Below the pieces are notes generated by a model that saw only the letters and a list, made by a program, of their open reading frames with translations, was not told the DNA's origin and ran no database searches. The translations under genes were made by a program, and so were the position numbers. Shown piece by piece: positions 3,587 to 22,363 of a stretch of 22,363 nucleotides of DNA (positions are counted from its first letter, which is position 1; every line of letters starts with the position of its first letter). Origin of the DNA: an uncultured Candidatus Electrothrix sp. GTDB lineage: Bacteria > Desulfobacterota > Desulfobulbia > Desulfobulbales > Desulfobulbaceae. Location of the stretch: positions 1 through 22,363 of the forward strand of contig CBFDDU010000038.1 in the NCBI GenBank assembly GCA_965603655.1, written 5' to 3'.

Positions 3587-3847
3587 TTATCCTCTTCTCC
3601 CCTCACGGCAGCTCTTGCCCTGACAGTCGGTCAACAGACTCGCTGTGTTTCTCTCCTCAATCAAGTCGAAGAATTTTGCTCCGATATACAGCATGAGCAG
3701 GAACACTGAGATAGCCACGGAACCGTCAAGTATTCGTTCAGGTGATGTTGCAACCCCCGCTTCTACACGAATGTTTATTATAATATACATCAGAACGGCC
3801 AATGACCAGTAGGATGATTTTTGTTGGGAACAGCAATCGGTCGTCAT
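3587..3847 (-). CDS. small membrane protein (hypothetical)
   Basis: Tracked ORF is 3587..3886. The internal ATG at 3847 (MTTDCCSQQ...) has the SD-like AGGGGGA followed by 5 nt upstream. Two hydrophobic helices (WSLAVLMYIIINI, VAISVFLLMLYIGAKFF). No family recognised. Confidence 0.5.
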   Translation of the reverse strand: MTTDCCSQQKSSYWSLAVLMYIIINIRVEAGVATSPERILDGSVAISVFLLMLYIGAKFFDLIEERNTASLLTDCQGKSCREGRRG

Positions 3848-4067
3848 TTTTTCCCCCTTTTTTTGCGATGCAGCCGCCTTTTCCAAACAGGAATACAGCA
3901 GCAGCTCTTGTTTGGTTTTCTGTTTACTAACTCCTCATGGTAATAGTCATATTGTTCTTCTCTCGTTCTCTTGATTTGTTGTTTGGGTATTTTGAGTTCT
4001 TGGCACTCTTTCTGATTCGATGAGGAAATCAACAAGAAATAAAATCCCCGTTTTCAGGTATGGAATT

Positions 4068-4169: not shown

Positions 4170-5552
4170 CTAATCGTTTTTGAACTCCGCCACCAGAGCC
4201 TGAATTGAGGCCTTGGCATCGCCGAAGTACATCCGGGCATTCTCGGCAAAAAAGAGGGCATTCTGGATGCCAGCAAAGCCTGGATTCATAGAGCGTTTTA
4301 GCACAATAACTGTCTTGGCTCGGTGTGTTTCAATGATAGGCATGCCGTAAATCGGGCTGGATTCGTCATCAAGGGCTGCTGGGTTGACCACATCGTTGGC
4401 ACCGATGACCACGCAGACATCCACGCTGTCCATACGAGGATTAATATCATCCATCTCCACCAACTGGTCGTACGGAACATTGGCTTCAGCCAGCAGCACG
4501 TTCATATGGCCGGGCATCCGTCCGGCAACCGGATGGATGGCGTAAGAGACCTCGGTGTCGTTTGCTTCCAGCAGATCACCAAGCTCTTTGACAGCGTGCT
4601 GGGCCTGCGCCACTGCTAGGCCGTAACCTGGAACAAAGGCGACAGAGTCGGCTGCTTCGAGGATATAATAGACATCCTCAGCTGAAGCCGCTCGAACCTC
4701 GCCTTGCGGGCCATCGCCAGCCTCCTGTACGGTTGTTGTACTCCCGAAACCGGAAAATAACACGTTGGCCAGGGAACGGTTCATGGCCTTGCACATGATA
4801 TTGGTCAGGATGATCCCGGAGGCACCGACCAGGGCACCAGCAACGATCAGGATGTTATTGGAGATGACAAAACCGGCAGCACAGGCAGCAATCCCGGAAT
4901 AACTGTTCAGTAAAGAAATAACAACCGGCATGTCTGCCCCGCCGATGGGGATGGTGGAGGTTACACCGAATCCCAAGGCCACCAAAAGAATAAGGATAAA
5001 GATAGCGTAGCCGAAACCGCTTGCAGGCGTTATGCAGAAGATAGTGGCTGCTACCAAGGCGGTGCCCAAGATGATCGCATTGATAATATGCTGTCCCTTG
5101 AAGACCACGGCTTTTTGGGTAATCTTACCGGAAAGCTTGCCAAAGGCGACCATGGAGCCGGAAAAGGTAACGCCACCGATAAAGGCGGAAAGAAAGGCGA
5201 CAAGGGCGATAAAAACCGATAGTTCTCTGTTTTGATGATATTCTGCCCAGGCCAAGAGGAGGCTGGAAATACCGCCGAACCCGTTGAACAGAGCAACCAT
5301 TTCCGGCATGGAGGTCATTTCGACTCGAATTGCGACAAAGGCCCCGATGCTGCTGCCGATAAGAATACCGAGAAAAATCCATTTATAATCCAGGCCAGCA
5401 TTCATCAGGGTAATAATGATGGCGATCAGCATACCCAGTGAGGAAAGCAGATTTCCTCTCCGGGCCGTAGCAGGTGAGCTGAGCATTTTCAGGCCGAAGA
5501 TGAACAGGGCTGCTGAGATGATATAGATAAAGTTGATGAAAAGAGGGTTCAT
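4170..5552 (-). CDS. pntB: NAD(P) transhydrogenase subunit beta
   Basis: 460 aa. N-terminal multi-TM domain (FGLKMLSSPATARRGNLL) plus a C-terminal NADP(H)-binding domain (VPGYGLAVAQAQH, MPGHMNVLLAEA, VIGANDVVNPAA). Confidence 0.95.
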   Translation of the reverse strand: MNPLFINFIYIISAALFIFGLKMLSSPATARRGNLLSSLGMLIAIIITLMNAGLDYKWIFLGILIGSSIGAFVAIRVEMTSMPEMVALFNGFGGISSLLLAWAEYHQNRELSVFIALVAFLSAFIGGVTFSGSMVAFGKLSGKITQKAVVFKGQHIINAIILGTALVAATIFCITPASGFGYAIFILILLVALGFGVTSTIPIGGADMPVVISLLNSYSGIAACAAGFVISNNILIVAGALVGASGIILTNIMCKAMNRSLANVLFSGFGSTTTVQEAGDGPQGEVRAASAEDVYYILEAADSVAFVPGYGLAVAQAQHAVKELGDLLEANDTEVSYAIHPVAGRMPGHMNVLLAEANVPYDQLVEMDDINPRMDSVDVCVVIGANDVVNPAALDDESSPIYGMPIIETHRAKTVIVLKRSMNPGFAGIQNALFFAENARMYFGDAKASIQALVAEFKND

Positions 5553-8067: not shown

Positions 8068-8340
8068 GCGGGTTACAGGTCGGGGCGCAGGCTCGAATTC
8101 CATAATCAGAACCATAAAACACCGAATACGCGTTGTACACGGACCCGGCGAAAAAAGCGTCTCGGCGGGACAGCACGATAAAAGACCGGTCTTTTAAAGC
8201 CAGTATCGAAGGAGCCTCCTTTGTTTCTTGTGAAAGGAAACAGAATTCGTTATAAGTTGATCTGCCAATAATGAACGAGGAGTAAGATGATTTTGCTCAA
8301 ATCAAGAGGAAGATCAGGACGAAAAGAGGAATAAGGAACG

Positions 8341-8757
8341 ATGACACAAGCAACTGACAGAGATTTGAAGGCATTTATCGACGACTGGCAGCAAAGCCCG
8401 GAAAGAAACAAAGAGATTTTCCTCCGCTATAAAGCCCAGCTTGAACGCGATGAAAATATTCAGCTGGAATTTATCCCGCGCCCCGGAATTACCTATTCCC
8501 TGAGAGCAACCCATGCTGCTCAGAAAACGAGAAAGCTCTTCGCGATGATTGATGTTATCGAAGATAACCCCAGATGGCTTTCGGTCTGCTTTTACGGTGA
8601 CATGATTACTGACCCTGAAGGGCAGGGCGATGCCGTGCCCGGTGGTTTGCTCGGTGAAGACGCGGTCTGTTTTGACCTTGAAGCATGGGATGAAGAACGT
8701 GTTCGCTATGTCGAAGCCCGGCTTGATGAAGCTTGTCAATGCTCCGCACAGGAATAA
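8341..8757 (+). CDS. hypothetical protein (first gene of the PNP/deaminase operon)
   Basis: 138-aa ORF with AAGAGGAATAAGGAA upstream of the ATG. It ends 16 nt before the PNP start. No family recognised. Confidence 0.7.
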   Translation: MTQATDRDLKAFIDDWQQSPERNKEIFLRYKAQLERDENIQLEFIPRPGITYSLRATHAAQKTRKLFAMIDVIEDNPRWLSVCFYGDMITDPEGQGDAVPGGLLGEDAVCFDLEAWDEERVRYVEARLDEACQCSAQE

Positions 8758-8773
8758 AGAGAGACAAGACAAC

Positions 8774-9607
8774 ATGATTGATATCAACGCACATAAAGAG
8801 CAGGTGGAGGAGGCGGTCGCTTTTCTCCGGTCCCGTCTCCCGATCATCCCGGAAATTCTGATCCAGTTAGGCACTGGCCTGGGCAACCTGGTCGAGGCGA
8901 TGGAAAGCAGCATCTCCATTCCGTATGAAGATATCCCCGGATTTCCCCATTCCACCGTGACCAGCCATGCCGGTAATCTGGTATGCGGTACCTTGGCCGG
9001 AAAACCCTGCGCGATTCTCCAGGGGCGATTTCATTATTACGAGGGCTATTCTGCCTGTGAGGTCGGGTTCCCTATCCGGGTCCTGTCCCTGCTTGGTGTG
9101 CGGACCGCCATCATTACCAATGCCTCGGGTGGATTAAAGACGTCTTGGCAGGCCGGTACCATTATGATTTTTAAAGATCATATCAACCAGTTGCCGGATA
9201 ACCCTTTGCGCGGCCCTAATATAGATGCATGGGGTCCCCGTTTTCCCGATTTGTCTGAACCCTATGACCCGGCCCTGCGCAAGCTGGCTCGGCAGGCAGC
9301 CCGTAAACTGAAATTTCCCGATGTGACTGAAGGAACCTATGTCTGCATTCCCGGTCCCAGTCTGGAAACCCCGGCGGAGACCCGGATGCTCAAACAATGC
9401 GGAGCTGATGCTGTGGGTATGTCCTCGGTGCCGGAGGTTATCACGGCCCTGCACGGCGGGCTGCGGGTGCTGGGGCTGTCCGTGGTGGCCAATATCAATG
9501 ATCCAGATGATTTTATCCCCATTTTGCTGGAGGATATTGTTGAGGCGGCCAAGCAGGCAGAACCGATACTGCAAAAAATGATTCTTGAAATCGTACAGGA
9601 GCTGTAA
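8774..9607 (+). CDS. purine nucleoside phosphorylase, trimeric (PNP-I/MTAP-like) family
   Basis: Tracked ORF is 8630..9607; ATG 8774 (MIDINAHKEQ) is the sensible start. Motifs: GTGLG, HSTVTSHAGNLVCG, GRFHYYEGY, ITNASGGL, GPNIDAWGPRFPD, GPSLETPAE, GADAVGMSSVPE. Confidence 0.9.
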   Translation: MIDINAHKEQVEEAVAFLRSRLPIIPEILIQLGTGLGNLVEAMESSISIPYEDIPGFPHSTVTSHAGNLVCGTLAGKPCAILQGRFHYYEGYSACEVGFPIRVLSLLGVRTAIITNASGGLKTSWQAGTIMIFKDHINQLPDNPLRGPNIDAWGPRFPDLSEPYDPALRKLARQAARKLKFPDVTEGTYVCIPGPSLETPAETRMLKQCGADAVGMSSVPEVITALHGGLRVLGLSVVANINDPDDFIPILLEDIVEAAKQAEPILQKMILEIVQEL

Positions 9608-9609
9608 CT

Positions 9610-10947
9610 ATGCATCAGGATATGAGTCAGGGTGAAACAAGGGAGGTTAACCTCATCCTTGCCGGTCGCTATTTGGTTGCGAATAGCCGGGAGGTCCAGG
9701 AGCAGGAAGGTATTTCGGTTGCTGTTGCCAAAGACCGGATTGTTGAGATCGGCCCGAAGCTGGCAAAGAAATATCCCCAGGCAGAATGTATTGCTCATCC
9801 CCATGGCCTGATCATGCCCGGCCTTATCAATACCCATACCCATGCAGCCATGGCCTGCTTTCGGGGGCTGGCTGATGATCTGCCCTTGATGGAGTGGCTC
9901 CAGGAGCATATCTTTCCCAGAGAGGCCCAACTAACCTCGGAGATCGTTTATCAGGCCACGCTGCTCTCCATCTGCGAGATGATTAAATCTGGAACGACGT
10001 CCTTTAATGATATGTATCTCTTTGCCAAGGATGTGGCCCGTGCTGCCGATGCATCCGGCATGCGGGCTTGGCTGGGAGAGGTTCTGTATGATTTTCCTTC
10101 GCCCAACTATGGTGAGCTGGAAAAGGGCTTTGCCTATACAGAGGAATTGTTCGAACGGTATGCGGAAAACGAACTCGTCACCATCACGGTCAATCCCCAT
10201 TCGGTGTACACCTGCTCCCCGGCCCTGCTGGAGCGACTGGCCGTCCAGGCAGAAGAAAAAAAGGCCCTCTATCATATTCATCTGGCGGAAAACCAGGATG
10301 AGGTCAACACCTGCACGGAACGATACGGGTGTTCACCGGTCCAGCATCTGGAAAAGCTGGGATTGCTTAACCAGCGGGTTGTGGCGGCCCACGGGGTTAT
10401 AGTTAGTGAGGAAGAGATGGACCTGTTGGCGGAACGCAAGGTGAAGCTTGCCCATTGCCCGGAGTCCAATATGAAGCTGGCTTCCGGGATCGCCCCTGTG
10501 CCAGCCATGCTGGAGAAAGGGCTCACGGTTGGCCTTGGTACAGACGGCAGTGCTTCTAATAACGATGTGGATCTGTTCGGCGAGATGAATTCGGCAGCCA
10601 AAATGCATAAGGTGGCTCAGATGGATCCCACGGTGATGAACGCAGCCGCTACCCTCCATGCCGCGACCCAGGGAGGGGCTGGAGTGCTCGGGGCAGAAAC
10701 CGAAATCGGCAGTATTGCCGTTGGAAAAAAAGCCGATATGATTATGTTGGACATGGATCAACCGCACCTTACCCCGGTCTATAACCCTATTTCCCATCTG
10801 GTCTATGCAGCCGGAGGCGGAGACGTTATCCATTCAATCATCAATGGGCAGGTGGTTATGCGGGACCGGCAGTTGATGACCCTGGACGAGACAGCAATTA
10901 TAAGGGAGATGCAGCGGATCGGAGAAGTGGTTCGGAAGATGCGGTAG
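9610..10947 (+). CDS. mtaD: 5'-methylthioadenosine/S-adenosylhomocysteine deaminase (amidohydrolase superfamily)
   Basis: 445 aa. Motifs: PGLINTHTHAAMACFRGLADDLPLMEWL, HIHLAEN, AHGV, GLGTDGSASNNDVDLF. The ATG lies 2 nt after the PNP stop. Confidence 0.85.
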   Translation: MHQDMSQGETREVNLILAGRYLVANSREVQEQEGISVAVAKDRIVEIGPKLAKKYPQAECIAHPHGLIMPGLINTHTHAAMACFRGLADDLPLMEWLQEHIFPREAQLTSEIVYQATLLSICEMIKSGTTSFNDMYLFAKDVARAADASGMRAWLGEVLYDFPSPNYGELEKGFAYTEELFERYAENELVTITVNPHSVYTCSPALLERLAVQAEEKKALYHIHLAENQDEVNTCTERYGCSPVQHLEKLGLLNQRVVAAHGVIVSEEEMDLLAERKVKLAHCPESNMKLASGIAPVPAMLEKGLTVGLGTDGSASNNDVDLFGEMNSAAKMHKVAQMDPTVMNAAATLHAATQGGAGVLGAETEIGSIAVGKKADMIMLDMDQPHLTPVYNPISHLVYAAGGGDVIHSIINGQVVMRDRQLMTLDETAIIREMQRIGEVVRKMR

Positions 10948-11069: not shown

Positions 11070-11912
11070 TTATTTGATTTCAGACAGGAGTTTCGGATCA
11101 GTAACGAGCTGCCGTACGCCGTGGGCATGATCTTCCTCAAAGACATTATCCTTGCACCATGCATTCAGGCTGTTGATGTCGATTTTAGCACATTGCGGAC
11201 GAACGCTCCAAGTAACCTGGAGAGGTGAACAAGTTTCCTGGGTGTATTTTGGTCCTGTTGTGGAACCTGGAAACTCAACCGGAGTTCCGGTATCGCCAGG
11301 CAGTGATTTTGCCTGATGCAGTCCATCGACAATATTACCGCCATACGTCATTGCGCCGAAGTCCATGGCATCAGGGTCATTGACGACCAGGAAAACCTGT
11401 GTTTCCACTCGCAGATCCGGGTTTGCACAGGTGTCAGAAAGGCATGAGCCCAGTCCCTTACCCGGTGTTACATCGCAGGAGCTGTGGACCCAATGTACCT
11501 CAATGGTATCACCGGGTTTTACGCCTGCACATCCTTCCTTGGCATCAACCGGAGCCAGCTCTTTCTTGGTGAGATTCTTGGTGTCGTTACACTGGTATCC
11601 GCCACCGTGACCATGCTCACCTTCACCGGCATAAATGGAAAAGTCTTTTGCTTTATGCTCGGCATTGACATGGAAATGAATATTACAGAGGTTCATGTCC
11701 TTGTAACCGGGTGCAAGAGAAAAGACACGCTTATTCTCGCCGGTTTTGCTGTCAATATCCCTCGGTGTCTGTGGCCCGAAGCCCTCGCATACCTTTCCTG
11801 TTCCTTCGGTATATTCTGAATGCTCTGTGTCTTTTGCATACCCTACTGTGGCAAGTAATCCGAGAGCAGAAGATGCAATAACAAAGGCCTGTACTGTTTT
11901 TTTAAGATCCAT
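11070..11912 (-). CDS. secreted carbonic-anhydrase-like protein (alpha/delta-type His triad)
   Basis: Tracked ORF is 11070..11936. ATG 11912 (MDLKKTVQAFVIASSALGLLATVGYA|K) has AAGGAGG 7 nt upstream. GPQTPRDI, NIHFHVNAEH and IEVHWVHSS resemble the QSPIDI, HFHWG..SEH and LHLVH blocks of alpha-CAs, but a ~40-aa insertion sits between the His motifs. Confidence 0.65.
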   Translation of the reverse strand: MDLKKTVQAFVIASSALGLLATVGYAKDTEHSEYTEGTGKVCEGFGPQTPRDIDSKTGENKRVFSLAPGYKDMNLCNIHFHVNAEHKAKDFSIYAGEGEHGHGGGYQCNDTKNLTKKELAPVDAKEGCAGVKPGDTIEVHWVHSSCDVTPGKGLGSCLSDTCANPDLRVETQVFLVVNDPDAMDFGAMTYGGNIVDGLHQAKSLPGDTGTPVEFPGSTTGPKYTQETCSPLQVTWSVRPQCAKIDINSLNAWCKDNVFEEDHAHGVRQLVTDPKLLSEIK

Positions 11913-12001
11913 TGGTCTTCCTCCTTTTTCCTTCATGTCTGTGTCTGTTGAGTTTCTAAATCATTCAGAATTTATGATATTCTGGTTGATCTTTAAATGT
12001 T

Positions 12002-12031: not shown

Positions 12032-12171
12032 AGGATATTTTTTAGGAAAAGATATCAGGGGGTGTGGCGGAGTTGTTCCTTGCTAAGGAGTGAACTGTAG
12101 CTTTTATTTTTTTTAAAGGTTAGGTACGGTTAGGGGGAGCAGTTACGGACTGAAAGTTTGTTTGCTGAAGA

Positions 12172-12220
12172 CAAAAAAACAAGAAGGAGCAAGCAGGGAG
12201 CTTTTTTAAAACTCCCTGCT
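12172..12220 (-). terminator. terminator-like hairpin closing the lipoprotein array
   Basis: Minus strand: AGCAGGGAG-uuuuaaaaaag-CUCCCUGCU, then the U-rich UGCUCCUUCUUGUUUUUUU. It lies about 70 nt after the stop at 12290. Confidence 0.5.
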
Positions 12221-12289
12221 AGCTTTCGCACAATCTAAGCATCTTGCCGCCTCAAAGAAACAAAGGGGAACGGGCAGGCAGTGCTTTTT

Positions 12290-12490
12290 TCAACGATAGT
12301 AATACACCGGCGGGAGGGGCATGACCCTCGGTGCCGGTACTACAACAGGATGACGATACGGCCTTATCGGTTGCACTACCGGAGCACCCGGCCGTACCAC
12401 CGCAGGGCGGTGAGGCGGAGGAGGAAAATAACATCCCCCGAGCAGGATCGCCGTTGCTGCCAGCGTGAGACATATTGCGATCTTTTTCAT
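12290..12490 (-). CDS. small proline-rich lipoprotein (LP1)
   Basis: 66 aa. Signal peptide plus lipobox: MKKIAICLTLAATAILLGG|C. The mature part is YFPPPPHRPAVVRPGAPVVQPIRPYRHPVVVPAPRVMPLPPVYYYR. Confidence 0.65.
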   Translation of the reverse strand: MKKIAICLTLAATAILLGGCYFPPPPHRPAVVRPGAPVVQPIRPYRHPVVVPAPRVMPLPPVYYYR

Positions 12491-12577
12491 GGCTTCATAT
12501 CCAGTATTGAGCAGGTAAGGAGCCCTTCTTCCCCAATAAGCTTATCCCAAGCGGGCCGGGCTCCCTTTCGAACTCGG

Positions 12578-12820
12578 TTAGTATGCACACATCGGTTTGT
12601 AGACCGGTGCGCAGTCACAGACTGGTTTACAGGTAGGCTTGCACTCTTTCTTTTTCTCTTTCTTTTTCTCTTTCTTCATCTTCACTTCTACTTGTATCGG
12701 CGGCGGACATTGGTAACCGTATCCATACGGGCGTTGCTGATAATGATACGGAGAGACGTAGCAACCGCTGAGAATGGTAGCCGCGATTGCCAAGGAAAGG
12801 AAGGTGCTGAGTTTTTTCAT
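12578..12820 (-). CDS. small Tyr/Lys/Cys-rich lipoprotein (LP2)
   Basis: 80 aa. MKKLSTFLSLAIAATILSG|C, with AAGAGG upstream. The mature part contains YVSPYHYQQRPYGYGYQCPPP, a KKEKKKEKKKE tract and ECKPTCKPVCDCAPVYKPMCAY. Confidence 0.7.
   Translation of the reverse strand: MKKLSTFLSLAIAATILSGCYVSPYHYQQRPYGYGYQCPPPIQVEVKMKKEKKKEKKKECKPTCKPVCDCAPVYKPMCAY
12644..12679. repeat. 12-nt tandem repeat (ctctttcttttt, about 3 copies) inside LP2
   Basis: There are two perfect copies and a third matching at 10/12. It encodes the (KKEK)n tract on the - strand. The unit length is a multiple of 3. Confidence 0.8.
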
Positions 12821-12848
12821 GATTTCTTTTACCTCTTTTTTTGGATGG

Positions 12849-12887
12849 CAGAAAATAAATCGATCCTGTCCCTTGCAGAATCGATTT
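12849..12887 (-). terminator. hairpin between LP3 and LP2 (possible attenuator or weak terminator)
   Basis: Minus strand: AAATCGAT-15 nt-ATCGATTT followed by AUUUUCU. The stem is AT-rich. Confidence 0.25.
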
Positions 12888-13018
12888 CAGTTACTTGCTG
12901 TACTCATTTTGCACGAATTTTTTTCTTTGCTCTCTGGCTTCCTGAGACAGAGATGCGCATCTCTTCTCTCTCCACAGATGTGTAAAGAAGAGAGGGTGTT
13001 ACTTGTCTCGCTTTTCCA

Positions 13019-13648
13019 TTACGGGCAACAAGGCTCAGGAGGACAGTAAGCTGGTTCCGGCGGTGGACAGGGTTTTGGATCTGGCAACGGCGGAGGACAG
13101 TAACTGCTGTTATACCTAGGCATAGAGCGAGTTGTCGTTGTGTAGGACCTTGTTGCCGGTGTAGTTATTGTTGAGGGCACAATAAACCGCGATGTCGGAG
13201 TACTGACCACAGATGGAATCGTAATTCTTGTCGCCGGAGTGGTGGTGACGGTTGACGGATAACGATACCGTGTGCTGACGTAGCGTGATGGTGAAACGTA
13301 CGTGCTTCTGCTTATTGTCCTTGGCGCGTAGGTCCGCCGCGTTGTATATCTTTTTACACTTGGTGACGAAGAGCGTACCACCGGGGTGTATGTCCGAGTA
13401 ACTGGTGCATATGTGCGTACCACCGGGGAGTATCTACGTACAGTCGGTGAGGAAGAGCGAACAATCGGCGTATAGGTCCGTCGTACTGAACGACCTGCTC
13501 CGCTCCCGGTGTGGGTCGAAGTGGAAACGGATTGGGTTGTTGAGGTATATGTATGGACTGACCGTGAGGTCGGCCCGCTAGAATATCCGCATGCGCTCAA
13601 TAAACCGGCAGCAAGCACAGGTGTTAATAAGAATGTTGTCATCTTCAT
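13019..13648 (-). CDS. repeat-rich basic lipoprotein with Cys/Pro-rich C-terminus (LP3)
   Basis: Tracked ORF is 13019..13801. ATG 13648 (MKMTTFLLTPVLAAGLLSA|C) has AGGAGA 10 nt upstream. The body consists of degenerate R-T-Y-x-P-V-V-R-S-S-S-P-S-V-K/R-R-Y repeats. The tail is CPPPLPDPKPCPPPEPAYCPPEPCCP. Confidence 0.7.
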   Translation of the reverse strand: MKMTTFLLTPVLAAGLLSACGYSSGPTSRSVHTYTSTTQSVSTSTHTGSGAGRSVRRTYTPIVRSSSPTVRRYSPVVRTYAPVTRTYTPVVRSSSPSVKRYTTRRTYAPRTISRSTYVSPSRYVSTRYRYPSTVTTTPATRITIPSVVSTPTSRFIVPSTITTPATRSYTTTTRSMPRYNSSYCPPPLPDPKPCPPPEPAYCPPEPCCP

Positions 13649-13692
13649 GAGTTCTTCATCTCCTGAAATTATATAACGTTTTTCATACGGTG

Positions 13693-13860
13693 TTAATAGG
13701 AGGGATATGTCCCTCCGTCGTAATAGGTGGAGGTTCGGACGGTGTGTGTCGAGGTCGAGTAGGTATCGATAGTCCGTGATGTTGGTGCTGCGTAGTAGCA
13801 CCCGCTCAGTATAAGAGCGGCAAGAGATAATACTATAAATAAGAGTCCTCGTTTCTTCAT
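13693..13860 (-). CDS. 55-aa lipoprotein sORF not in the ORF track (LP4)
   Basis: My own translation of the minus strand gives MKKRGLLFIVLSLAALILSG|CYYAAPTSRTIDTYSTSTHTVRTSTYYDGGTYPSY*. The lipobox is LSGC. The mature N-terminus (PTSRTIDTYSTSTHT) resembles that of LP3 (PTSRSVHTYTSTTQSVSTSTHT). It stops 44 nt before the LP3 start. Confidence 0.6.
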   Translation of the reverse strand: MKKRGLLFIVLSLAALILSGCYYAAPTSRTIDTYSTSTHTVRTSTYYDGGTYPSY

Positions 13861-13958
13861 AACAACCCCGCTTCCTGAAGATTATCTGTGCAATATAATT
13901 CTATTTCCTTTTTTTTCTCTTTTTCTTATTGGGATAGTATAGGAATTTGTTGAAATAC

Positions 13959-14849
13959 TCAAGTTTTTTCTTGACGCTCTTCGGTAGAAGAGCCTGTTTT
14001 TTCCTGTCTTCTTAGGTGGTTTACTTTGAGCACGAGGCTGAGCAGATAGCAGACCGTAGCAATAAGAATAATAACCGAACCACTGGGCAGGTCAAAAGAA
14101 AAGCTGACCCCAAGACCGCTGGTAATGAACAGTGCCGAGAGAATTGTGGCAAGAACCATCATTTGGCGGATGCCTGAAGCTATGTTGCCAGCAATGGCCG
14201 CTGGCAGGGTGAGCAGGGCGATGACCATAATAATTCCGACAATACGAACAAGCAGGACGATTGTCAAGGCGGTGAGGCAGAGAAGCAGCAAATAGAGCCA
14301 GCGGGTATGTACACCTCGGAGTTGCGTATATTCTTCGTCAAAGCAGAGAGCGACCAGTTTATTATAAAAAATACCGACCACGGACAGAATAACACAATTA
14401 AGCGCGATAACAAAAGAGATGTCTTCCTTACTAATGAGCAGGATATTGCCGAAGAGATAGGACATCGGATCAAAATAGCCAGGGGTTATGGCTATGAAAA
14501 GAAAACCGATGGACATGCCGCCTGCCCAGAGTGCCCCGATAACTGAATCTTCCCGCTGGCCAGCATTCTTGCTCACCTGTGCCAGGATTAGAGCGGCCAG
14601 CAGGGAGACGATAATAGCCCCTCGGACAGGGGTTATCCAGGGGATACCTACCACGTTCTGGAGGTATAAGCCCCCTCCGATGCCGGCCAGCACACAATGG
14701 GAAATGGCGCCAGCAATATAGGAGATTCGCCGGACAACAACAAAGGTGCCAATAATACCGAAGGCAATAGAGGCCAGTAGGCCGGTAATGAGGGCGTAAC
14801 GGAGAAAGGGCAGGTCAGGGTCAAGGAGCGCGCTCCACAGTTCAGTCAT
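13959..14849 (-). CDS. znuB: zinc/manganese ABC transporter permease (ABC-3 family)
   Basis: Tracked ORF is 13959..14882. ATG 14849 (MTELWSALLDP) has GGAGG 8 nt upstream and overlaps the znuC stop by 8 nt. It is a polytopic protein with typical ABC-3 blocks (FLRYALITGLL, DEEYTQLRGV). Confidence 0.9.
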   Translation of the reverse strand: MTELWSALLDPDLPFLRYALITGLLASIAFGIIGTFVVVRRISYIAGAISHCVLAGIGGGLYLQNVVGIPWITPVRGAIIVSLLAALILAQVSKNAGQREDSVIGALWAGGMSIGFLFIAITPGYFDPMSYLFGNILLISKEDISFVIALNCVILSVVGIFYNKLVALCFDEEYTQLRGVHTRWLYLLLLCLTALTIVLLVRIVGIIMVIALLTLPAAIAGNIASGIRQMMVLATILSALFITSGLGVSFSFDLPSGSVIILIATVCYLLSLVLKVNHLRRQEKTGSSTEERQEKT

Positions 14850-15597
14850 ATTCGTGGCCTCCGGTACCGCAACGATGGTCATGGCGAATCATACGTAAAT
14901 CACCGCCGTACATGTCGCGGAGCAGCTCGCCGGTCAATTCGCTGGTCGGGTGAACATGGACCTGATTATTAACGCAGATTACCCGTTGAAAAAAACTGGG
15001 GGAGACGCCTATTTCATGGGTCACCATGAGAATGATCATATTTTTATTGAGTTCAGCCAGTAGAGTAAAGAGCTGTTCTTCTGATTGGCTATCCAGGCTG
15101 GCAGTGGGTTCATCAAGGATGAGGATGTCACCTTCCGCAGCCAGGGCACGGGCAATGAGCACCCGTTGTCGTTGGCCTCCTGAAAGAGCAGAAAAAGAGC
15201 GTTTGGCTAGGTGAGCCAAATTAACGGCATGTAGAGCCTCTAAGGCGACCTCCTTATCGTGGCGAGTATAACGACCGCTCAGGGAGTTACCTATTCGGCC
15301 CATGCACACCACCTCCTGAACAGAGATAGGAAAATTGGGGTCATAGCGGGCATACTGGGGGACATAGCCTATCCGGGTGCGTTCCTGCACAGGGGCGTTG
15401 CCATAGACGAGGACCGTTCCCTTATCTGGGCTCGCCAGGCCGAGGATGACTTTAATCAGCGTGGTTTTTCCGCCGCCGTTGGGCCCGACAATAGAAGCTG
15501 TATCCCCTGGGAAAATATCCAGATGAACATCGGTCAACACCGGAATATCATCATAGGAATAACAGAGGTCTCTGATCTGGACAGCTGCATTTCTCAT
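14842..15597 (-). CDS. znuC: zinc ABC transporter ATP-binding protein
   Basis: Tracked ORF is 14842..15768; ATG 15597 (MRNAAVQIRDL) gives a canonical 251-aa ATPase. Walker A is GPNGGGKTT, the signature is LSGGQRQR, and Walker B is ILILDEP. Confidence 0.9.
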   Translation of the reverse strand: MRNAAVQIRDLCYSYDDIPVLTDVHLDIFPGDTASIVGPNGGGKTTLIKVILGLASPDKGTVLVYGNAPVQERTRIGYVPQYARYDPNFPISVQEVVCMGRIGNSLSGRYTRHDKEVALEALHAVNLAHLAKRSFSALSGGQRQRVLIARALAAEGDILILDEPTASLDSQSEEQLFTLLAELNKNMIILMVTHEIGVSPSFFQRVICVNNQVHVHPTSELTGELLRDMYGGDLRMIRHDHRCGTGGHEYD

Positions 15598-15616
15598 AGG
15601 GAATATTCTCTGGGGC

Positions 15617-16558
15617 TTATTGGGGCGCGAGCGCAGTTTGTATGGCCTCGGCCATTTGCCTGAGGTTCTGTTCGATATCTTCCGCCAAAGGATCCAGTTC
15701 CACAAGCCTGCCCTTGATAGCCTGGGCCACGGTTTGGGCATTTTTTCGATCAAATTGGGGCTGGACAAAGAGGATTTTCACCTTATCCGCCTTGGCTTTT
15801 TTGACAAGCGCATAGAGCTGCTTCGGCGAAGGGGCTTTTCCTTCGATTTCCACTGCCTCTTGGTGCAGATCATAGGCATGGGCAAAATAACCGAATGCGG
15901 GATGGAAAACAAAAAAGGTTGCGCCTCGGAATGGGGCAAGCTGTTGCCCAAGTTCCTGCTGGAGCCGGGTCAACCGTTCTTTGAGGGCCTTGAGATTTTG
16001 TTGATAGACTGCTGCATGTTCTGAATCAGCCGTTATCAGGGCCTCTGTCATGGCGGAGGCCATTTTTTCTACATTGCGCGGGTCAAGCCAGAGATGCGGG
16101 TCCGCGTGCTCCAGCTCCGCTTCCTCATGCTGGTGCTGATCGTGCCCCCTATGATCCTCTTTCTTTTCTTCGTGATGATGATGGGCAACCAGAGGAATTC
16201 GTGTGATGTCCGTTGTTACATCAATGAATTGCGGCCCGCTGTTGGAGTGCTCTTTGTTGCTTATTTTTCGTGCGATCTCCCGTTCAAACTGCATCCCAAT
16301 TGTAAAATAGAGGCGGGAACGAAAAAGTGAGGTTATTTTCTCCGGGGTTGGCTGGTAGGTATGCGGCTCCTGTCCCTTGTCGAGCAGAACATGGGCGCTG
16401 ACAAGGTCACCACCTAGTTGCTCGACCAGCCATTTTTGCGGGGCAATGGAGACAAAGACGGGCAGGGGCTCTGTACTTGCCGGAAGATTTGCCGGAAGCA
16501 TTGCGGTTGTTAACAGGAAAAAACAGCTCAGCAGGAGGGAGTATTTTTTAGTTTGCAT
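15617..16558 (-). CDS. znuA: periplasmic zinc-binding protein with His-rich loop
   Basis: Tracked ORF is 15617..16630; ATG 16558 gives the signal peptide MQTKKYSLLLSCFFLLTTAMLPANLPAS. Cluster A-I SBP blocks are present (VFVSIAPQKW, EPHTYQPTP, DPHLWLDP). The loop HHHHEEKKEDHRGHDQHQHEEAELEH is typical of Zn-specific ZnuA. The exact start is uncertain. Confidence 0.85.
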   Translation of the reverse strand: MQTKKYSLLLSCFFLLTTAMLPANLPASTEPLPVFVSIAPQKWLVEQLGGDLVSAHVLLDKGQEPHTYQPTPEKITSLFRSRLYFTIGMQFEREIARKISNKEHSNSGPQFIDVTTDITRIPLVAHHHHEEKKEDHRGHDQHQHEEAELEHADPHLWLDPRNVEKMASAMTEALITADSEHAAVYQQNLKALKERLTRLQQELGQQLAPFRGATFFVFHPAFGYFAHAYDLHQEAVEIEGKAPSPKQLYALVKKAKADKVKILFVQPQFDRKNAQTVAQAIKGRLVELDPLAEDIEQNLRQMAEAIQTALAPQ

Positions 16559-16604
16559 ATTGTATGAGCTTGAAAAGGTTGGGGTCACGATCATCGTAAC
16601 TTTA

Positions 16605-16883
16605 TCATTCTTTAGCTTCTGCGTGGACAAACTGTTTCACAAAATTTCTGATTGCCGCTGAGCTGAGAAAGAATTTGCTTAGCCTCTGTTCTCCGGCCTG
16701 TAGGGTTGGAATCATTGTGACCCTCTGTCGTAGAGCTTGTCCCGGATTGGTCAGGATGTCCACCGACGCAATCTTGAGCTCGGGGAACTCCCGCTGGAGA
16801 TCGGTCAGCACCCGGCGGACCAGTAGGCAGCGGGGTCAAAGGGCTGAGGTGTAAAAAATAATGCCGGTATCAGGTTTCTTCAT
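16605..16883 (-). CDS. thioredoxin/glutaredoxin-fold selenoprotein candidate (U-P-R-C motif; TGA at 16836..16838 read as Sec)
   Basis: The same frame as tracked ORF 16605..16811, extended upstream, reads ATG(16883) MKKPDTGIIFYTSAL-TGA-PRCLLVRRVLTDLQREFPELKIASVDILTNP...VTMIPTLQAGE...*. The TGA sits exactly where the first Cys of a CPxC motif belongs. The cis-Pro IPTL motif is present, and a SECIS-like hairpin follows the TGA. Confidence 0.7.
16790..16834 (-). other. candidate bacterial SECIS hairpin immediately 3' of the in-frame UGA
   Basis: In the mRNA, CCCGCUG (nt +2..+8 after UGA) pairs with CAGCGGG (+40..+46). An inner helix GGUC/GACC plus GC/GC closes the apical loop CGGGU, which begins 22 nt after the UGA. 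Confidence 0.5.
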
Positions 16884-19603: not shown

Positions 19604-19657
19604 AATCCTGATGACAAAACAACATCTTCGTTTATCTTCCTTCTGTAAGAGACTGCC

Positions 19658-22363
19658 ATGAGCCTTTGCCCTATCAAATGCCCGATGAAATTTGTCGCCC
19701 TTTGTCTGCTGTCGTTGACTCTTTTTGCTGCTGAAACCTTTGCTGCCTCCCTTGATACTGGCTTTGGTGATAACGGGAAGGTTGCTGTGGATCTTGGATC
19801 ATACGGTGATCAGGCCAATGCCGTGCTGGTGCAGCCTGACGGCAAAATCTTGGTGGGCGGGTCCTCCTCCAATACCGCTGATCTGGACTTCATGTTTTTT
19901 CGGCTCCTTGCTGACGGCTCTCTGGATAGCGAGTTTAATTTTGACGGCACAGTTTCCACTGCAGTCGGCTCCCATGATGACGAGGTTTTTGCCCTGGCCC
20001 TTCAGGAGGACGGCAAGATCCTCGCGGCGGGCTACAGCTCGAATAACGGAAGTCGGGATTTTGCTCTGGCTCGTTATAATAGCGACGGGTCGCTTGATCG
20101 GGAATTCGGCCTGGAAGGCATGGTGGTGACCGCTGTCAGTGATTCTGATGACGAGATTACCGGTGTGGCTGTGCAACCGGACGGTAGGATCCTGCTGACC
20201 GGTACCGCTTTGGGCGATGAAGGACGGGTGGTGGTTCTGTCTCGGTACCAGGGTAACGGAACACCGGATTTTACCTTTGCCGATGAGGGCTTTACCCTGA
20301 GTGCTGTGGGCACGGATGCCCGTGCTGAAAGCCTGCTCTTGACCGAAGAGGGACGTATTCTTGTTGCTGGTACCTATCGGGAACAGGACAAGGCTGCGCT
20401 CATGGTGCTTGGTTACGATGAAAATGGCGATTTGGACACCTCCTTTGGCTATGAGGGCGTGACCGTGCCTTTGGACGGTACTGTGCCCAGTGCGGGCTAT
20501 GGTATGGCGATCCGGGATGACGGCAGTATTCTGGTTGCTGGCTCTGTCGGAAAAGACGGAACACGGGATGGGGCGCTGTTCCTCTTTGGTGAGGACGGGT
20601 TGCCAGACAGGACCTTTGGAGATACGGGGGGTCTGGTCACGGATGACGAAGATGATACGATCTTCTACGATGTGCTGGTGACCGAGGAAATGATCGCGGC
20701 GACCGGTGTGACAGTTGGCGAAGACGGGATGCGTGAGGCCTTATTGGTCACCTATGCAAAAGGGGACGGCGCGAACAGTGAGCAGCTCTTTCAGCAGCAG
20801 GTGGCAGGTTCCTCAGAAGAGGCAGCGGATGGAACTGACGCAACTGATGAAGATTCGGAAGAAACAGAGACCGTTGCTCAGATTGTGACCACGGAAGTGG
20901 ATAATGAAGAAGATTATGCCTTTTCCCTTGCTGCGGCTGATGCAGGCAGTGTGGTTGTGGTCGGTGCCAGCGGTTCCCAGGAAATCGCCAGTGCTGCGGT
21001 CCGTAAATATACTATTTTTCAGTCAAGTGTTACCGGTTCCTCCTGGAGCACAGCCACGGGTAATGCCTCTGTCCTGACCGGTGCAGCCCAGGACGTGACC
21101 CGGACAACCGCTCTTATTCCGGGAGAGGTTCTTACCGGGCTGGGCACGGTGACGGAGCGGGGGGTGGTGTTCAGTATTGATCCTCTTCCTGTTTTGCAAG
21201 GCAGTGAGAGTACCACCGATGATACGACGGACGACACGACCACGGACGATACCACCGATGATACAACAACCGATGAAACCACGACGGATGAAACCGGGCC
21301 GAGCATAACCAGCAGTACTGAGAGTTCTTTTTCCACAACAGAGCAGGCTATTTTGGTCGTCTCTACGGATGAGAATGCAACCTGTCGGTACAATGCTCGG
21401 TATGACGAGGATTATGGGGAAATGGGGAGCATTCTTTCCTCTTCCTTCGGTACTGGGCATCATGTTGTCTTGGGCACGCTTGCGGAAGGGGATTACACCT
21501 TTTACGTACGTTGTAAGGATGAATCAGGGAATATAAGCACGTCAGGGACTGAGGTGACTTTTGCTGTCTCTGCGGATGAGACTGGAGCGCCGGTACGTAG
21601 TGATTTGTCTCCCAGTGGTACGGTTTCAAGTACTTCTGTTACTCTGAGCTTGAGTACAGATGTTGCTGCGACCTGTAAATATACAACGTCTGATTCGGGG
21701 ATGGATTATAACGATATGAAGAACGAGTTCGATACAACGGGTGGAACAAGCCATTCAGAGTCCGTGTCGAGTCATATTGGCGGGGAATCTTATATATACT
21801 ATGTACGGTGCAAAAGCACTTCAACAGGAGCTGAAAATACCAACAGTAGCGAGATCTCTTTTACTGTTGATACCACCCCTCCAGCTGTCACAGACACTAC
21901 GGATGCTACGTTTACCTCAAGTGAGTCTGTTATCTTATCTGTAACAACAGATGAAGAAGCGACATGTAAGTATGACGATACAGATGATACCTATGACTCT
22001 ATGGTAAACAAGTTCTCCGCAAGTTCAGATGGAATGACACATTCTGCGGACATAGGAATTCTGGCGGAAAATACAGAACATACTTATTATGTCCGCTGCC
22101 AAGACACCGCATCTAACCAAAATTTATCAAGCACTGAGATTTATTTTGAAGTTACTGCTCAACTTGGTACTGAAAACTCCACAGACTTCTATGCAGCTCA
22201 AGGTTTTCCTGCTGCTGATATGCGGGACATTTTCAGCATGAGCCTGGAAACCGTAGGCAACCTGTTCGTCAGCACCGCTTTCGCCCAGGATGATACAGAC
22301 ACTAGCGATAGCACCACCACCGACACCACTGACGAACAGGTTGCCTACGGTTTCCAGGCTCAT
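19658..22363 (+). CDS. large secreted delta-60-repeat (beta-propeller-like) surface protein, 3'-truncated by the window edge
   Basis: My own translation finds an open frame from ATG 19658 (or ATG 19685, MKFVALCLLSLTLFAAETFA|A) to the window end, 902 codons with no stop. It is not in the ORF track because it lacks a stop. It has six ~57-aa repeats of the form LDxxFGxxGxV...VQPDGKILxxG...F.L.RY..DGS. Confidence 0.85.
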   Translation, partial: MSLCPIKCPMKFVALCLLSLTLFAAETFAASLDTGFGDNGKVAVDLGSYGDQANAVLVQPDGKILVGGSSSNTADLDFMFFRLLADGSLDSEFNFDGTVSTAVGSHDDEVFALALQEDGKILAAGYSSNNGSRDFALARYNSDGSLDREFGLEGMVVTAVSDSDDEITGVAVQPDGRILLTGTALGDEGRVVVLSRYQGNGTPDFTFADEGFTLSAVGTDARAESLLLTEEGRILVAGTYREQDKAALMVLGYDENGDLDTSFGYEGVTVPLDGTVPSAGYGMAIRDDGSILVAGSVGKDGTRDGALFLFGEDGLPDRTFGDTGGLVTDDEDDTIFYDVLVTEEMIAATGVTVGEDGMREALLVTYAKGDGANSEQLFQQQVAGSSEEAADGTDATDEDSEETETVAQIVTTEVDNEEDYAFSLAAADAGSVVVVGASGSQEIASAAVRKYTIFQSSVTGSSWSTATGNASVLTGAAQDVTRTTALIPGEVLTGLGTVTERGVVFSIDPLPVLQGSESTTDDTTDDTTTDDTTDDTTTDETTTDETGPSITSSTESSFSTTEQAILVVSTDENATCRYNARYDEDYGEMGSILSSSFGTGHHVVLGTLAEGDYTFYVRCKDESGNISTSGTEVTFAVSADETGAPVRSDLSPSGTVSSTSVTLSLSTDVAATCKYTTSDSGMDYNDMKNEFDTTGGTSHSESVSSHIGGESYIYYVRCKSTSTGAENTNSSEISFTVDTTPPAVTDTTDATFTSSESVILSVTTDEEATCKYDDTDDTYDSMVNKFSASSDGMTHSADIGILAENTEHTYYVRCQDTASNQNLSSTEIYFEVTAQLGTENSTDFYAAQGFPAADMRDIFSMSLETVGNLFVSTAFAQDDTDTSDSTTTDTTDEQVAYGFQAH
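19751..20770 (+). repeat. six tandem delta-60-type protein repeats
   Basis: The repeats start at LDTGFGDNGKV, LDSEFNFDGTV, LDREFGLEGMV, PDFTFADEGFT, LDTSFGYEGVT and PDRTFGDTGGL. Each contains a (Q/E/D)xDG(K/R/S)IL core. Confidence 0.8.
21212..21294 (+). repeat. Thr/Asp low-complexity linker (TTDDTTDDTTTDDTTDDTTTDETTTDET)
   Basis: Near-periodic acc/acg-gat/gac codons. The antisense strand yields the artefactual VVSSVVVSS ORF 21019..21393. Confidence 0.85.
21295..22160 (+). repeat. three tandem ~95-aa modules with a conserved Cys pair (A-T-C-[KR]-Y ... Y-[YF]-V-R-C-[KQ]-[DS])
   Basis: Module cores: LVVSTDENATCRY...GDYTFYVRCKDESGN; LSLSTDVAATCKY...GESYIYYVRCKSTSTG; LSVTTDEEATCKY...TEHTYYVRCQDTASN. 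Confidence 0.7.

Follow-up and report, generated by a model that had tools for sequence, protein, structure and literature searches.

Candidatus Electrothrix, a genus of cable bacteria, carries a compact and conserved cassette of four genes directly downstream of the zinc importer operon znuACB. The genes encode small proteins, predicted to be secreted and lipid-anchored, that no family database describes and that are under-annotated in sequence records. The cassette studied here lies on contig CBFDDU010000038.1 of an uncultured Candidatus Electrothrix sp. (assembly GCA_965603655.1), and the whole stretch of 22,363 nucleotides is referred to as the window. The genes are named LP4, LP3, LP2 and LP1 in the order in which they follow znuB. 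They are almost certainly real genes, they very probably encode lipoproteins to judge from their signals, and they are under purifying selection. As far as tested, the cassette is found only in cable bacteria, namely in Candidatus Electrothrix and, as a diverged counterpart, in Candidatus Electronema. The reading that we prefer, although we hold it tentatively and short of an even chance, is that the four genes are paralogous and encode basic, disordered outer-membrane lipoproteins that would serve as cable-bacteria-specific envelope tethers or cross-linkers, by a mechanism that we infer. An initial annotation of the window, made from the letters alone, had described a tandem array of four tiny, low-complexity lipoproteins and had placed the host among the Desulfobacterota, which holds. 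The restriction to cable bacteria, the constant attachment to znuACB, and a predicted promoter and hairpins that belong to the cassette and are conserved with it are new beyond that description.

Four Genes With Lipoprotein Signals

The initial annotation placed four consecutive minus-strand open reading frames (ORFs) with lipoprotein signals in this region, with the lipoboxes LSG, LSA, LSG and LGG, and all four are present with these features (Table 1). A PROSITE PS51257-type lipoprotein rule was applied to the window proteins and to their orthologues. The lipobox criterion was an uncharged hydrophobic stretch followed by [LVI][ASTVI][GAS]C, with the Cys at position 15-35. All four window proteins and all 36 Electrothrix-type orthologues tabulated agree with the rule. 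The N-termini (MKKR, MKM, MKK and MKK) each have a Met start and a Lys or Arg within the first seven residues. The residue that follows the lipid-bearing Cys (position +2) is Tyr in LP4, LP2 and LP1, which confirms the annotated count of three in four, and it is Gly in LP3; Asp occurs in none of them. A stricter filter for a signal plus a lipobox passes three ORFs on both strands of the whole 22-kb window, all of them in the cassette; a Pro in the h-region is the sole reason why LP3 fails it. In 200 Markov-1 simulations, this filter passes a mean of 0.005 ORFs per window.

The mechanically called ORF of LP3 begins at GTG 13801 and overlaps LP4. The conserved start is ATG 13648; an invariant AGGAG precedes it, and the conserved signal peptide begins there. 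The long ORF antisense to LP1 and LP2 had been dismissed as an artefact, and rightly so, as its open frame is not conserved across loci: the longest equivalent antisense frame is 88-177 amino acids (aa) in most other loci versus 234 aa in the window.

Table 1. The cassette, its putative signals and the adjoining genes, in window coordinates.
Feature	Coordinates	Strand	Description
LP4	13860-13693	minus	55-aa lipoprotein precursor; signal MKKRGLLFIVLSLAALILSG; lipobox LSG with Cys at 21, then CYY; 35-aa mature part
LP3	13648-13019	minus	209-aa lipoprotein precursor; signal MKMTTFLLTPVLAAGLLSA; lipobox LSA with Cys at 20, then CGY
LP2	12820-12578	minus	80-aa lipoprotein precursor; signal MKKLSTFLSLAIAATILSG; lipobox LSG with Cys at 20, then CYVSPY
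LP1	12490-12290	minus	66-aa lipoprotein precursor; signal MKKIAICLTLAATAILLGG; lipobox LGG with Cys at 20, then CYFPPPP
Antisense ORF, artefact	12281..12985	plus	234 aa; covers LP1, LP2 and both spacers
Promoter-like site of cassette	13934..13962	minus	TTGAGT (13962-13957, overlaps znuB stop codon), 17-nt spacer, TACTAT (13939-13934)
Leader upstream of LP4	13861..13933	minus	purine-rich, highly conserved; GGA motifs AGGAAAT and CAGGAAG; imperfect palindrome ATTATATTGCACAGATAAT
Second promoter-like site, between LP4 and LP3	13668..13696	minus	TTAACA-17-TATAAT, 11/12 matches; partly conserved across loci
LP3/LP2 stem-loop	12857..12887	minus	conserved, then TTTATTTTC; intrinsic-terminator or attenuator-like
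LP2/LP1 hairpin	12519..12565	minus	GGGAGCCC...GGGCTCC; stem kept in most loci
Terminal hairpin downstream of LP1	12172..12220	minus	strong 13-bp stem, then T-rich run
znuA-znuC-znuB, upstream	13959..16630	minus	zinc ATP-binding cassette (ABC) importer; Pfam ZnuA, ABC_tran, ABC-3
Delta-class carbonic anhydrase, downstream	11070..11936	minus	signal peptide; Pfam PF10563, E = 2.8e-76

Conservation in Candidatus Electrothrix

A search with LP3 returned four relatives, one of which is labelled Candidatus Electrothrix. One of the four is encoded on a 24-kb contig (locus L001), where each of the four ORFs has a homologue, in unchanged order, after znuA-znuC-znuB. A pattern scan derived from the LP3 alignment and run on one genome per species (185,579 species) gave five loci, all of them in Electrothrix; they belong to E. 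marina, E. aarhusensis, E. gigas and a further Electrothrix species. Syntenic sites in relatives were reached through ZnuB homologues. Loci L010 and L011 came from such a look-up, via a ZnuB labelled E. aestuarii, and L016-L019 came from a metagenome scan with LP1. The cassette loci comprise L001, L002 (E. marina), L003 (E. aarhusensis), L004, L005 and L006 (E. gigas, partial), together with L010 and L011 (E. aestuarii), L016, L017, L018 and L019. Wherever the contig extends far enough, every Electrothrix locus recovered has the order znuACB-LP4-LP3-LP2-LP1. LP4 has orthologues in L001, L002, L003, L005, L010, L017 and L019.

The initial annotation argued that four lipoboxes in a row indicate real genes rather than noise, and it named loss of the lipoboxes or frames at syntenic loci of relatives as a result that would speak against this. 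The synteny comparison gave the opposite result. Frames and lipoboxes are kept at at least eight further syntenic Electrothrix-type loci, and the ratio of nonsynonymous to synonymous substitution (dN/dS) is well below 1. Pairwise values by the Nei-Gojobori method are 0.18-0.53 for LP4, 0.17-0.24 for LP3, 0.07-0.32 for LP2 and 0.17-0.51 for LP1.

Profile searches outline the same narrow group of organisms. LP2 is a well-defined family: its profile, run against 5.8 billion clusters, recovers 27 proteins, and every named one is from Candidatus Electrothrix (Electrothrix communis, aestuarii, GW3-4, GM3_4, EH2 and YB6). The hidden Markov model (HMM) of LP3, run against 1.84 billion representatives, finds about eight true relatives. 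Its other matches are unrelated repeat proteins (with repeats such as SPISRAK or PIIRWYN) and were discarded on inspection.

The relatives are labelled "hypothetical protein" in the databases, and once "Lipoprotein" (UniRef). The exact window sequences of LP4, LP3 and LP1, and also of ZnuB, are absent from a collection of 15 billion proteins. In the closed Electrothrix records CP138355.1 (L010 8992-10776) and CP159373.1 (L011 8992-10783), the gene calls include only LP2 (86 aa). They omit LP4, LP3 (266-268 aa) and LP1; in their place, two short ORFs of 55 and 46 aa are listed on the opposite strand across LP3 and LP1. Since only LP2 is called, proteomic searches built on such gene calls could not detect LP4, LP3 or LP1.

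These omissions might be taken to mean that the ORFs are open by chance, or that only some of them are real genes, and low-complexity sequence can indeed carry long ORFs; the absence of three of the four exact proteins from the large collection and the calling of LP2 alone in L010 and L011 point the same way. This explanation is extremely improbable and effectively refuted. It has to contend with frames, lipoboxes and start contexts that are conserved in more than ten loci, with dN/dS values of 0.07-0.53 overall, and with the very small number of such ORFs, about 0.005, expected per window.

Composition, Repeats and Probable Paralogy of the Mature Chains

The mature parts had been called extremely biased in composition, and the computed residue percentages bear this out. 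Mature LP4 consists of 26 % Thr, 20 % Tyr and 14 % Ser and has a Tyr-rich tail. Mature LP3 contains 19 % Thr, 17 % Ser, 16 % Pro and 12 % Arg; LP2 contains 20 % Lys, 15 % Pro, 13 % Tyr and 11 % Cys; LP1 contains 32 % Pro, 19 % Val, 13 % Arg and 11 % Tyr, with no acidic residue. The net charge of the mature chains is +22 in LP3, +8 in LP2 and +6 in LP1. The C-termini read ...PSY in LP4, ...CCP in LP3, ...CAY in LP2 and ...YYR in LP1.

LP3 has an ordered layout. An N-terminal module resembling LP4 is followed by about nine heptads of the form (S/T/A)PxVRx(Y/S), a conserved block (TTPATRITIPSVVSTPTSRFIVPSTITTPATR) and a Cys-Pro tail (YCPPPLPDPKPCPPPEPAYCPPEPCCP), whose consensus form is CPPPLP...CPPEPCCP. 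Its length is 209 aa in the window versus 237-354 aa in the orthologues, and this range of 209-354 aa arises because the heptad copy number varies. LP2 begins its mature part with CYVSPY and continues with a GYQCPPPIxVEV motif (GYQCPPPIKVEV), a Lys/Glu-rich centre, the tail CKPxCKPxC..CxPVYKPxCxY and a terminal Tyr. Beyond the lipid-bearing Cys, orthologues of LP2 have 5-7 Cys residues and those of LP3 have 3-5, so the counts vary. LP1, one third of which is proline, has the motifs YRHPVVVPAPRV and a C-terminal YYYR. The sole tandem repeat at the DNA level in this region is CTCTTTCTTTTT, present in 2.8 copies on the plus strand at 12644-12676. It encodes the LP2 stretch KKEKKKEKKKE, the length of which varies between species.

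The module that LP4 and LP3 have in common lies right after the lipid-bearing Cys and reads P-T-S-R-x-V-x-T-Y-S/T-S-T-x-x-V-x-T-S-T-H/Y. In each of six genomes, the two versions are 47-62 % identical across some 30 residues of the mature chains. At the divergent locus L019, the module has changed in LP4 and LP3 together, to VSTAT. BLASTP with composition correction finds no significant similarity between mature LP4 and mature LP3. The conserved 30-residue module in six genomes, and an LP3 profile that recovers LP4-like proteins, nevertheless argue for paralogy, and the duplication that the initial annotation proposed for this pair is thereby supported. A chimeric protein occurs in L019, where the LP2 orthologue (3809-4051) begins like LP1, with LGG followed by CYFPP, and ends like LP2, with a Lys-rich centre and a Cys-Pro tail. 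This LP1-like start suggests that LP1 and LP2 are paralogues as well, by duplication or by segment exchange.

The AlphaFold mean predicted local distance difference test (pLDDT) score is 53 for LP2 (26 sequences) and 41 for LP3 (5 sequences), and there is no confident helix or other structure. Such very low confidence is consistent with the intrinsic disorder that had been suggested. The confidence of the LP2 and LP3 models is too low for a fold search. In sum, the four mature parts have a basic character and a high content of Pro, Tyr, Thr, Ser and Arg; they are either short or built of repeats, and no fold is predicted for them.

Searches for Described Families

The four proteins had not been recognized as members of any described family, and the searches agree: Pfam, NCBIfam and the Protein Data Bank (PDB) give nothing above sub-threshold, signal-peptide level. 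Pfam has no match to the four proteins at E <= 10, and the only NCBIfam matches are sub-threshold and to the signal peptide. Among these, LptM (NF047847) scores 14.5, 14.1 and 12.1 bits against a cut-off of 27.7 and covers only residues 1-22. The Phr-type secreted peptide precursors TIGR04429 and NF038040 score 19 and 13.4 bits against cut-offs of 25 and 35, again in the signal peptide only. The Braun lipoprotein Lpp was rejected on the grounds that there is no Pfam LPP match, no C-terminal Lys and no confident helix. Metallothionein-like proteins and ZinT were rejected as well: there is no Pfam or NCBIfam match and no fixed set of Cys and His, the number of Cys varies, and the Electronema counterparts have no Cys tails. 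In the PDB, hmmsearch with the LP2 and LP3 profiles gives 0 matches at E <= 1. Rfam and tRNA scans of the window found nothing, and literature searches found no paper that describes LP1-LP4.

Putative Promoters, Leader and Hairpins

The cassette appears to have its own start signals. A promoter-like site overlaps the stop codon of znuB (Table 1); it has 8/12 matches, which is under the 9/12 threshold of the promoter scan. The equivalent site of Electronema aureum (TTGCAA-17-TACACT) has recognizable hexamers and spacing. The znuB-LP4 spacer has a mean identity of 81 % over five Electrothrix loci, with long invariant runs, and this exceeds the identity of the flanking coding sequence. The two GGA motifs of the leader are about 35 nt apart, and the second of them, CAGGAAG, is the Shine-Dalgarno site. 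No Rfam family matches the leader. A regulator or an RNA-binding protein could bind in the spacer.

Hairpins are predicted between and after the genes. The stem-loop between LP3 and LP2 has 12 predicted pairs, four of which show compensatory double changes among seven loci. In the hairpin between LP2 and LP1, both sides are altered in L010 (GAAGCCC/GGGCTTC). A T-run follows the LP3/LP2 hairpin only and not the LP2/LP1 hairpin. These intercistronic hairpins may serve to fix the proportions of the four products or to stabilise segments of the mRNA. Downstream of LP1, the fold of 12165-12250 has a free energy of -30.4 kcal/mol (z = -3.1), and none of 200 shuffled sequences is as stable; the terminal hairpin within it is the likely end of the transcription unit. 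With its own promoter-like site and these hairpins, the cassette looks like a separate transcription unit with internal attenuation.

The Electronema Counterpart and Relatives Without the Array

Four ORFs with lipoprotein-like signals, rich in Tyr, Pro and Arg, come after znuB in Candidatus Electronema aureum. One of 195 aa is rich in Tyr, Ser, Thr and Pro and has an LNG lipobox before the Cys. Another of 89 aa has MNG followed by CYYHPLPPP... and is rich in Arg, Tyr and His. The remaining two are of 37 aa (LGG, then CYFPPPPHH) and of 43 aa (an FSG lipobox before the Cys). Three of the four have no Cys beyond that of the lipobox, and the 195-aa ORF has one extra. Because direct protein comparison with the Electrothrix proteins is not significant, the array is treated as a positional and compositional counterpart, and what points to a common origin of the two arrays is solely the homologous promoter region.

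Eight loci of Desulfobulbaceae-like relatives have znuACB with no lipoprotein array after it. They are those of Desulfosediminicola flagellatus (two assemblies), a Desulfobulbus metagenome-assembled genome and five relatives whose ZnuB is 70-79 % identical to that of the window. Near the znu operon of one relative without the cassette (L013), a gene at 8223-10262 encodes a protein of 679 aa in which a multihaem cytochrome (Cytochrome_C554) is fused to a truncated globin. In the same locus, a Uma2-family gene separates znuA from znuC.

Possible Functions

According to the tether reading, signals for Sec export and signal peptidase II processing would yield lipidated proteins that are sorted to the inner leaflet of the outer membrane. 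The sorting is predicted by the Escherichia coli rule, as residue +2 is Tyr or Gly and not Asp. Extended, polyproline-like and positively charged chains would then reach into the periplasm, where Arg/Tyr contacts and the Cys-Pro or Tyr-rich C-terminal tails would let them tether or cross-link polymers of the envelope. The number of heptads in LP3 would set the reach, and the attenuator-like LP3/LP2 hairpin would make LP4 and LP3 more abundant than LP2 and LP1. The fibre sheath of cable bacteria is reported to consist of protein on a polysaccharide layer that has been suggested to contain acidic sugars, and aromatic amino-acid signals have been reported for it (Boschker et al., 2021; PMC8238962). 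The acidic-sugar layer is, speculatively, a plausible anionic partner for the basic chains.

Several points weigh against the tether reading. That LP1-LP4 act as structural tethers or cross-linkers is argued from composition alone, and we hold this part with more doubt than confidence. The +2 sorting rule is that of E. coli and may not be that of Desulfobulbaceae. Two of the four Electronema ORFs have Asn at lipobox position -2 and fail the PROSITE-style rule, while the other two are canonical. Comparison of the Electrothrix and Electronema proteins gives a probability of 1.9 % in hhalign, and BLASTP similarity is essentially at signal-peptide level and not significant. The Electronema proteins are without Cys-Pro tails, so cross-linking by Cys cannot be a universal function. 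Several of the eight array-less loci belong to organisms without a species name. Finally, the genes around the cassette, znuACB in every case and a periplasmic carbonic anhydrase repeatedly, are suggestive of a role related to metals instead.

That last point leads to the main rival, in which the cassette serves accessory periplasmic metal handling for zinc economy. Sulfidic sediment offers little free Zn. Zn, Ni, Co or Cd would be captured at the outer membrane by two means, the Cys-Pro tails in LP2 and LP3 and the His and Tyr residues in LP1 and LP4, and the metal would then be handed on to ZnuA or to zinc enzymes of the periplasm, carbonic anhydrase being one example. It is well established that genes for auxiliary zinc chaperones can stand beside znu genes (ZinT, AztD, PA4063). 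The cassette stands directly after znuACB in every locus, ZnuA has a His-rich loop, and a periplasmic carbonic anhydrase lies downstream in three lineages. The Cys counts of LP2 and LP3 are not always even, so thiolate ligands fit better than a fixed disulfide pattern. We nevertheless consider the zinc explanation unlikely. The cassette has its own predicted promoter, and the only palindrome at the znuA promoter (16584-16600) has no second copy upstream of LP4. In the chains, Pro, Thr, Arg and Tyr prevail over His, Cys, Asp and Glu, there is a strong positive charge, and acidic residues are missing from LP1 altogether. Three of the four Electronema ORFs have no extra Cys and the Cys-Pro tails are missing there, no metallothionein, ZinT or other metal-binding family was matched, and most Electrothrix loci have no carbonic anhydrase after the cassette. 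An explanation that is just as unlikely sees nothing special in LP1-LP4: like OsmB, the entericidins or LptM, they would be small envelope lipoproteins that evolve fast, fillers or stress proteins linked neither to zinc nor to the cable lifestyle, and znu adjacency and lineage restriction would reflect history and the speed at which disordered sequence diverges. Gram-negative genomes commonly encode small disordered lipoproteins of unknown function. Disordered sequence diverges fast, to the point that the Electronema and Electrothrix proteins are barely alignable, so the absence elsewhere could be partly a detection limit. The sub-threshold LptM matches (12-14.5 bits versus 27.7) could be counted here too, but they are confined to the signal peptide. 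At the syntenic site of the non-cable relatives there is no lipoprotein array whatever, and not just an unrecognizable one, and gene order, promoter and hairpins are more conserved than the synonymous sites of the genes, which argues for a coordinated, selected unit.

A further explanation assigns the proteins, as parts or as anchors, to the periplasmic fibre or sheath system that is specific to cable bacteria, with lipid-anchored, basic, Tyr/Cys/Pro-rich chains that would fasten the conductive fibres or the polysaccharide-rich sheath to the shared outer membrane and might add aromatic or thiol contacts. The cassette is confined to the two cable-bacterial genera tested, and basic chains rich in Tyr, Cys and Pro would suit a sheath with an acidic-sugar layer and aromatic signals (PMC8238962). 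None of the cable-bacteria papers that were read identifies proteins of the fibre or sheath by name. We regard both this role and the fastening that it implies as quite unlikely, as the Electronema proteins differ greatly in sequence, no sequence hints at a binding site for the nickel cofactor, and it is not obvious how small lipoproteins would form fibres. If the fibre or sheath explanation were true, LP1-LP4 would be among the first gene products assigned to the conductive-fibre structure. Whichever of these roles they have, as tethers of the envelope, in zinc handling or in association with the fibres, LP1-LP4 offer concrete candidates for testing.

Comparison With Known Systems

Several known systems resemble the cassette in part. 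LptM (YifL, NF047847) is likewise a tiny lipobox precursor with a short unfolded mature chain and conserved residues after the lipid-bearing Cys. Unlike LptM, the LP proteins have the post-Cys motifs CYY, CYV or CYF plus Pro, and their genes form a four-gene cassette behind znuACB. Braun's Lpp is a small outer-membrane lipoprotein of an abundant type and acts as a tether and periplasmic ruler, whose length could set envelope spacing as the LP3 repeats might. The LP chains, in contrast, form no alpha-helical coiled coil and have no C-terminal Lys for attachment to peptidoglycan, and their tails end in Tyr, Arg or Cys-Pro. The spacer of TonB, (Glu-Pro)n(Lys-Pro)n, is a Pro-rich charged segment, probably in polyproline-II form; similar segments are the CKPxCKP and KKEKKK stretches of LP2, the LP3 tail PLPDPKPCPPPEP and LP1 with its 32 % Pro. 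However, the LP proteins are predicted to be lipid-anchored rather than held in the inner membrane, and they have no TonB C-terminal domain and no Pfam match.

The Vlp and Vsa proteins of mycoplasmas also combine a lipoprotein signal with short tandem peptide repeats of variable copy number, as in LP3 (209-354 aa). Their sequences are unrelated, the host here is Gram-negative, and the window has neither phase-variation machinery nor perfect DNA tandem repeats, the only repeat being the 12-nt AG repeat in LP2. Metallothioneins and eukaryotic small proline-rich proteins have clustered Cys-x3-Cys and Cys-Pro like the tails of LP2 and LP3, which resemble thiolate metal sites or motifs for cross-linking by disulfides. 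Unlike these proteins, the mature LP chains contain only about 3-11 % Cys, are rich in Tyr and in Lys or Arg, and match no family. ZinT, AztD and PA4063 correspond in gene position beside a zinc ABC importer and in periplasmic location, but the LP proteins have no sequence or domain similarity to them, are not His-rich, are not folded, and have a separate predicted promoter. Comparative genomics of cable bacteria has centred on cytochromes, pilins and metal transporters. The LP proteins add an example of functional, selected, intrinsically disordered bacterial lipoproteins.

Neighboring Genes

The znuACB neighbour is invariant in every cassette-bearing locus. Binding proteins specific for zinc characteristically have a His-rich loop, as ZnuA does (VAHHHHEEKKEDHRGHDQHQHEE). 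At 16584-16600, a perfect 8-1-8 palindrome, GTTACGAT-G-ATCGTGAC, overlaps the -35 element of a promoter-like site of znuA and is a candidate Zur-type operator. An operator common to znuA and LP4 was considered and rejected: the palindrome GTTACGATGATCGTGAC occurs at znuA only, is unique in the window, and has poor conservation elsewhere, being only weakly conserved in E. aarhusensis.

A periplasmic carbonic anhydrase follows the cassette in three lineages. It is of the delta class in the window, where it has its own promoter-like site at 12031-12002, and of the beta class in Electronema aureum (L007 6577-7422) and in L019 (4824-5642). The other Electrothrix loci, which are the majority, have no carbonic anhydrase after the cassette. 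In L019, a 22-residue remnant of a delta-carbonic anhydrase lies at 4500-4565 between LP1 and the beta-carbonic anhydrase, which suggests that one class was replaced by the other at the same site.

The plus strand at 19649-22363 holds an open frame that has at least 905 codons and is missing from the ORF list because it runs off the right end of the window. Its product is probably a large secreted repeat protein; the N-terminus is signal-like, and the repeats are of the type GDNGKV...DGKILVGG.

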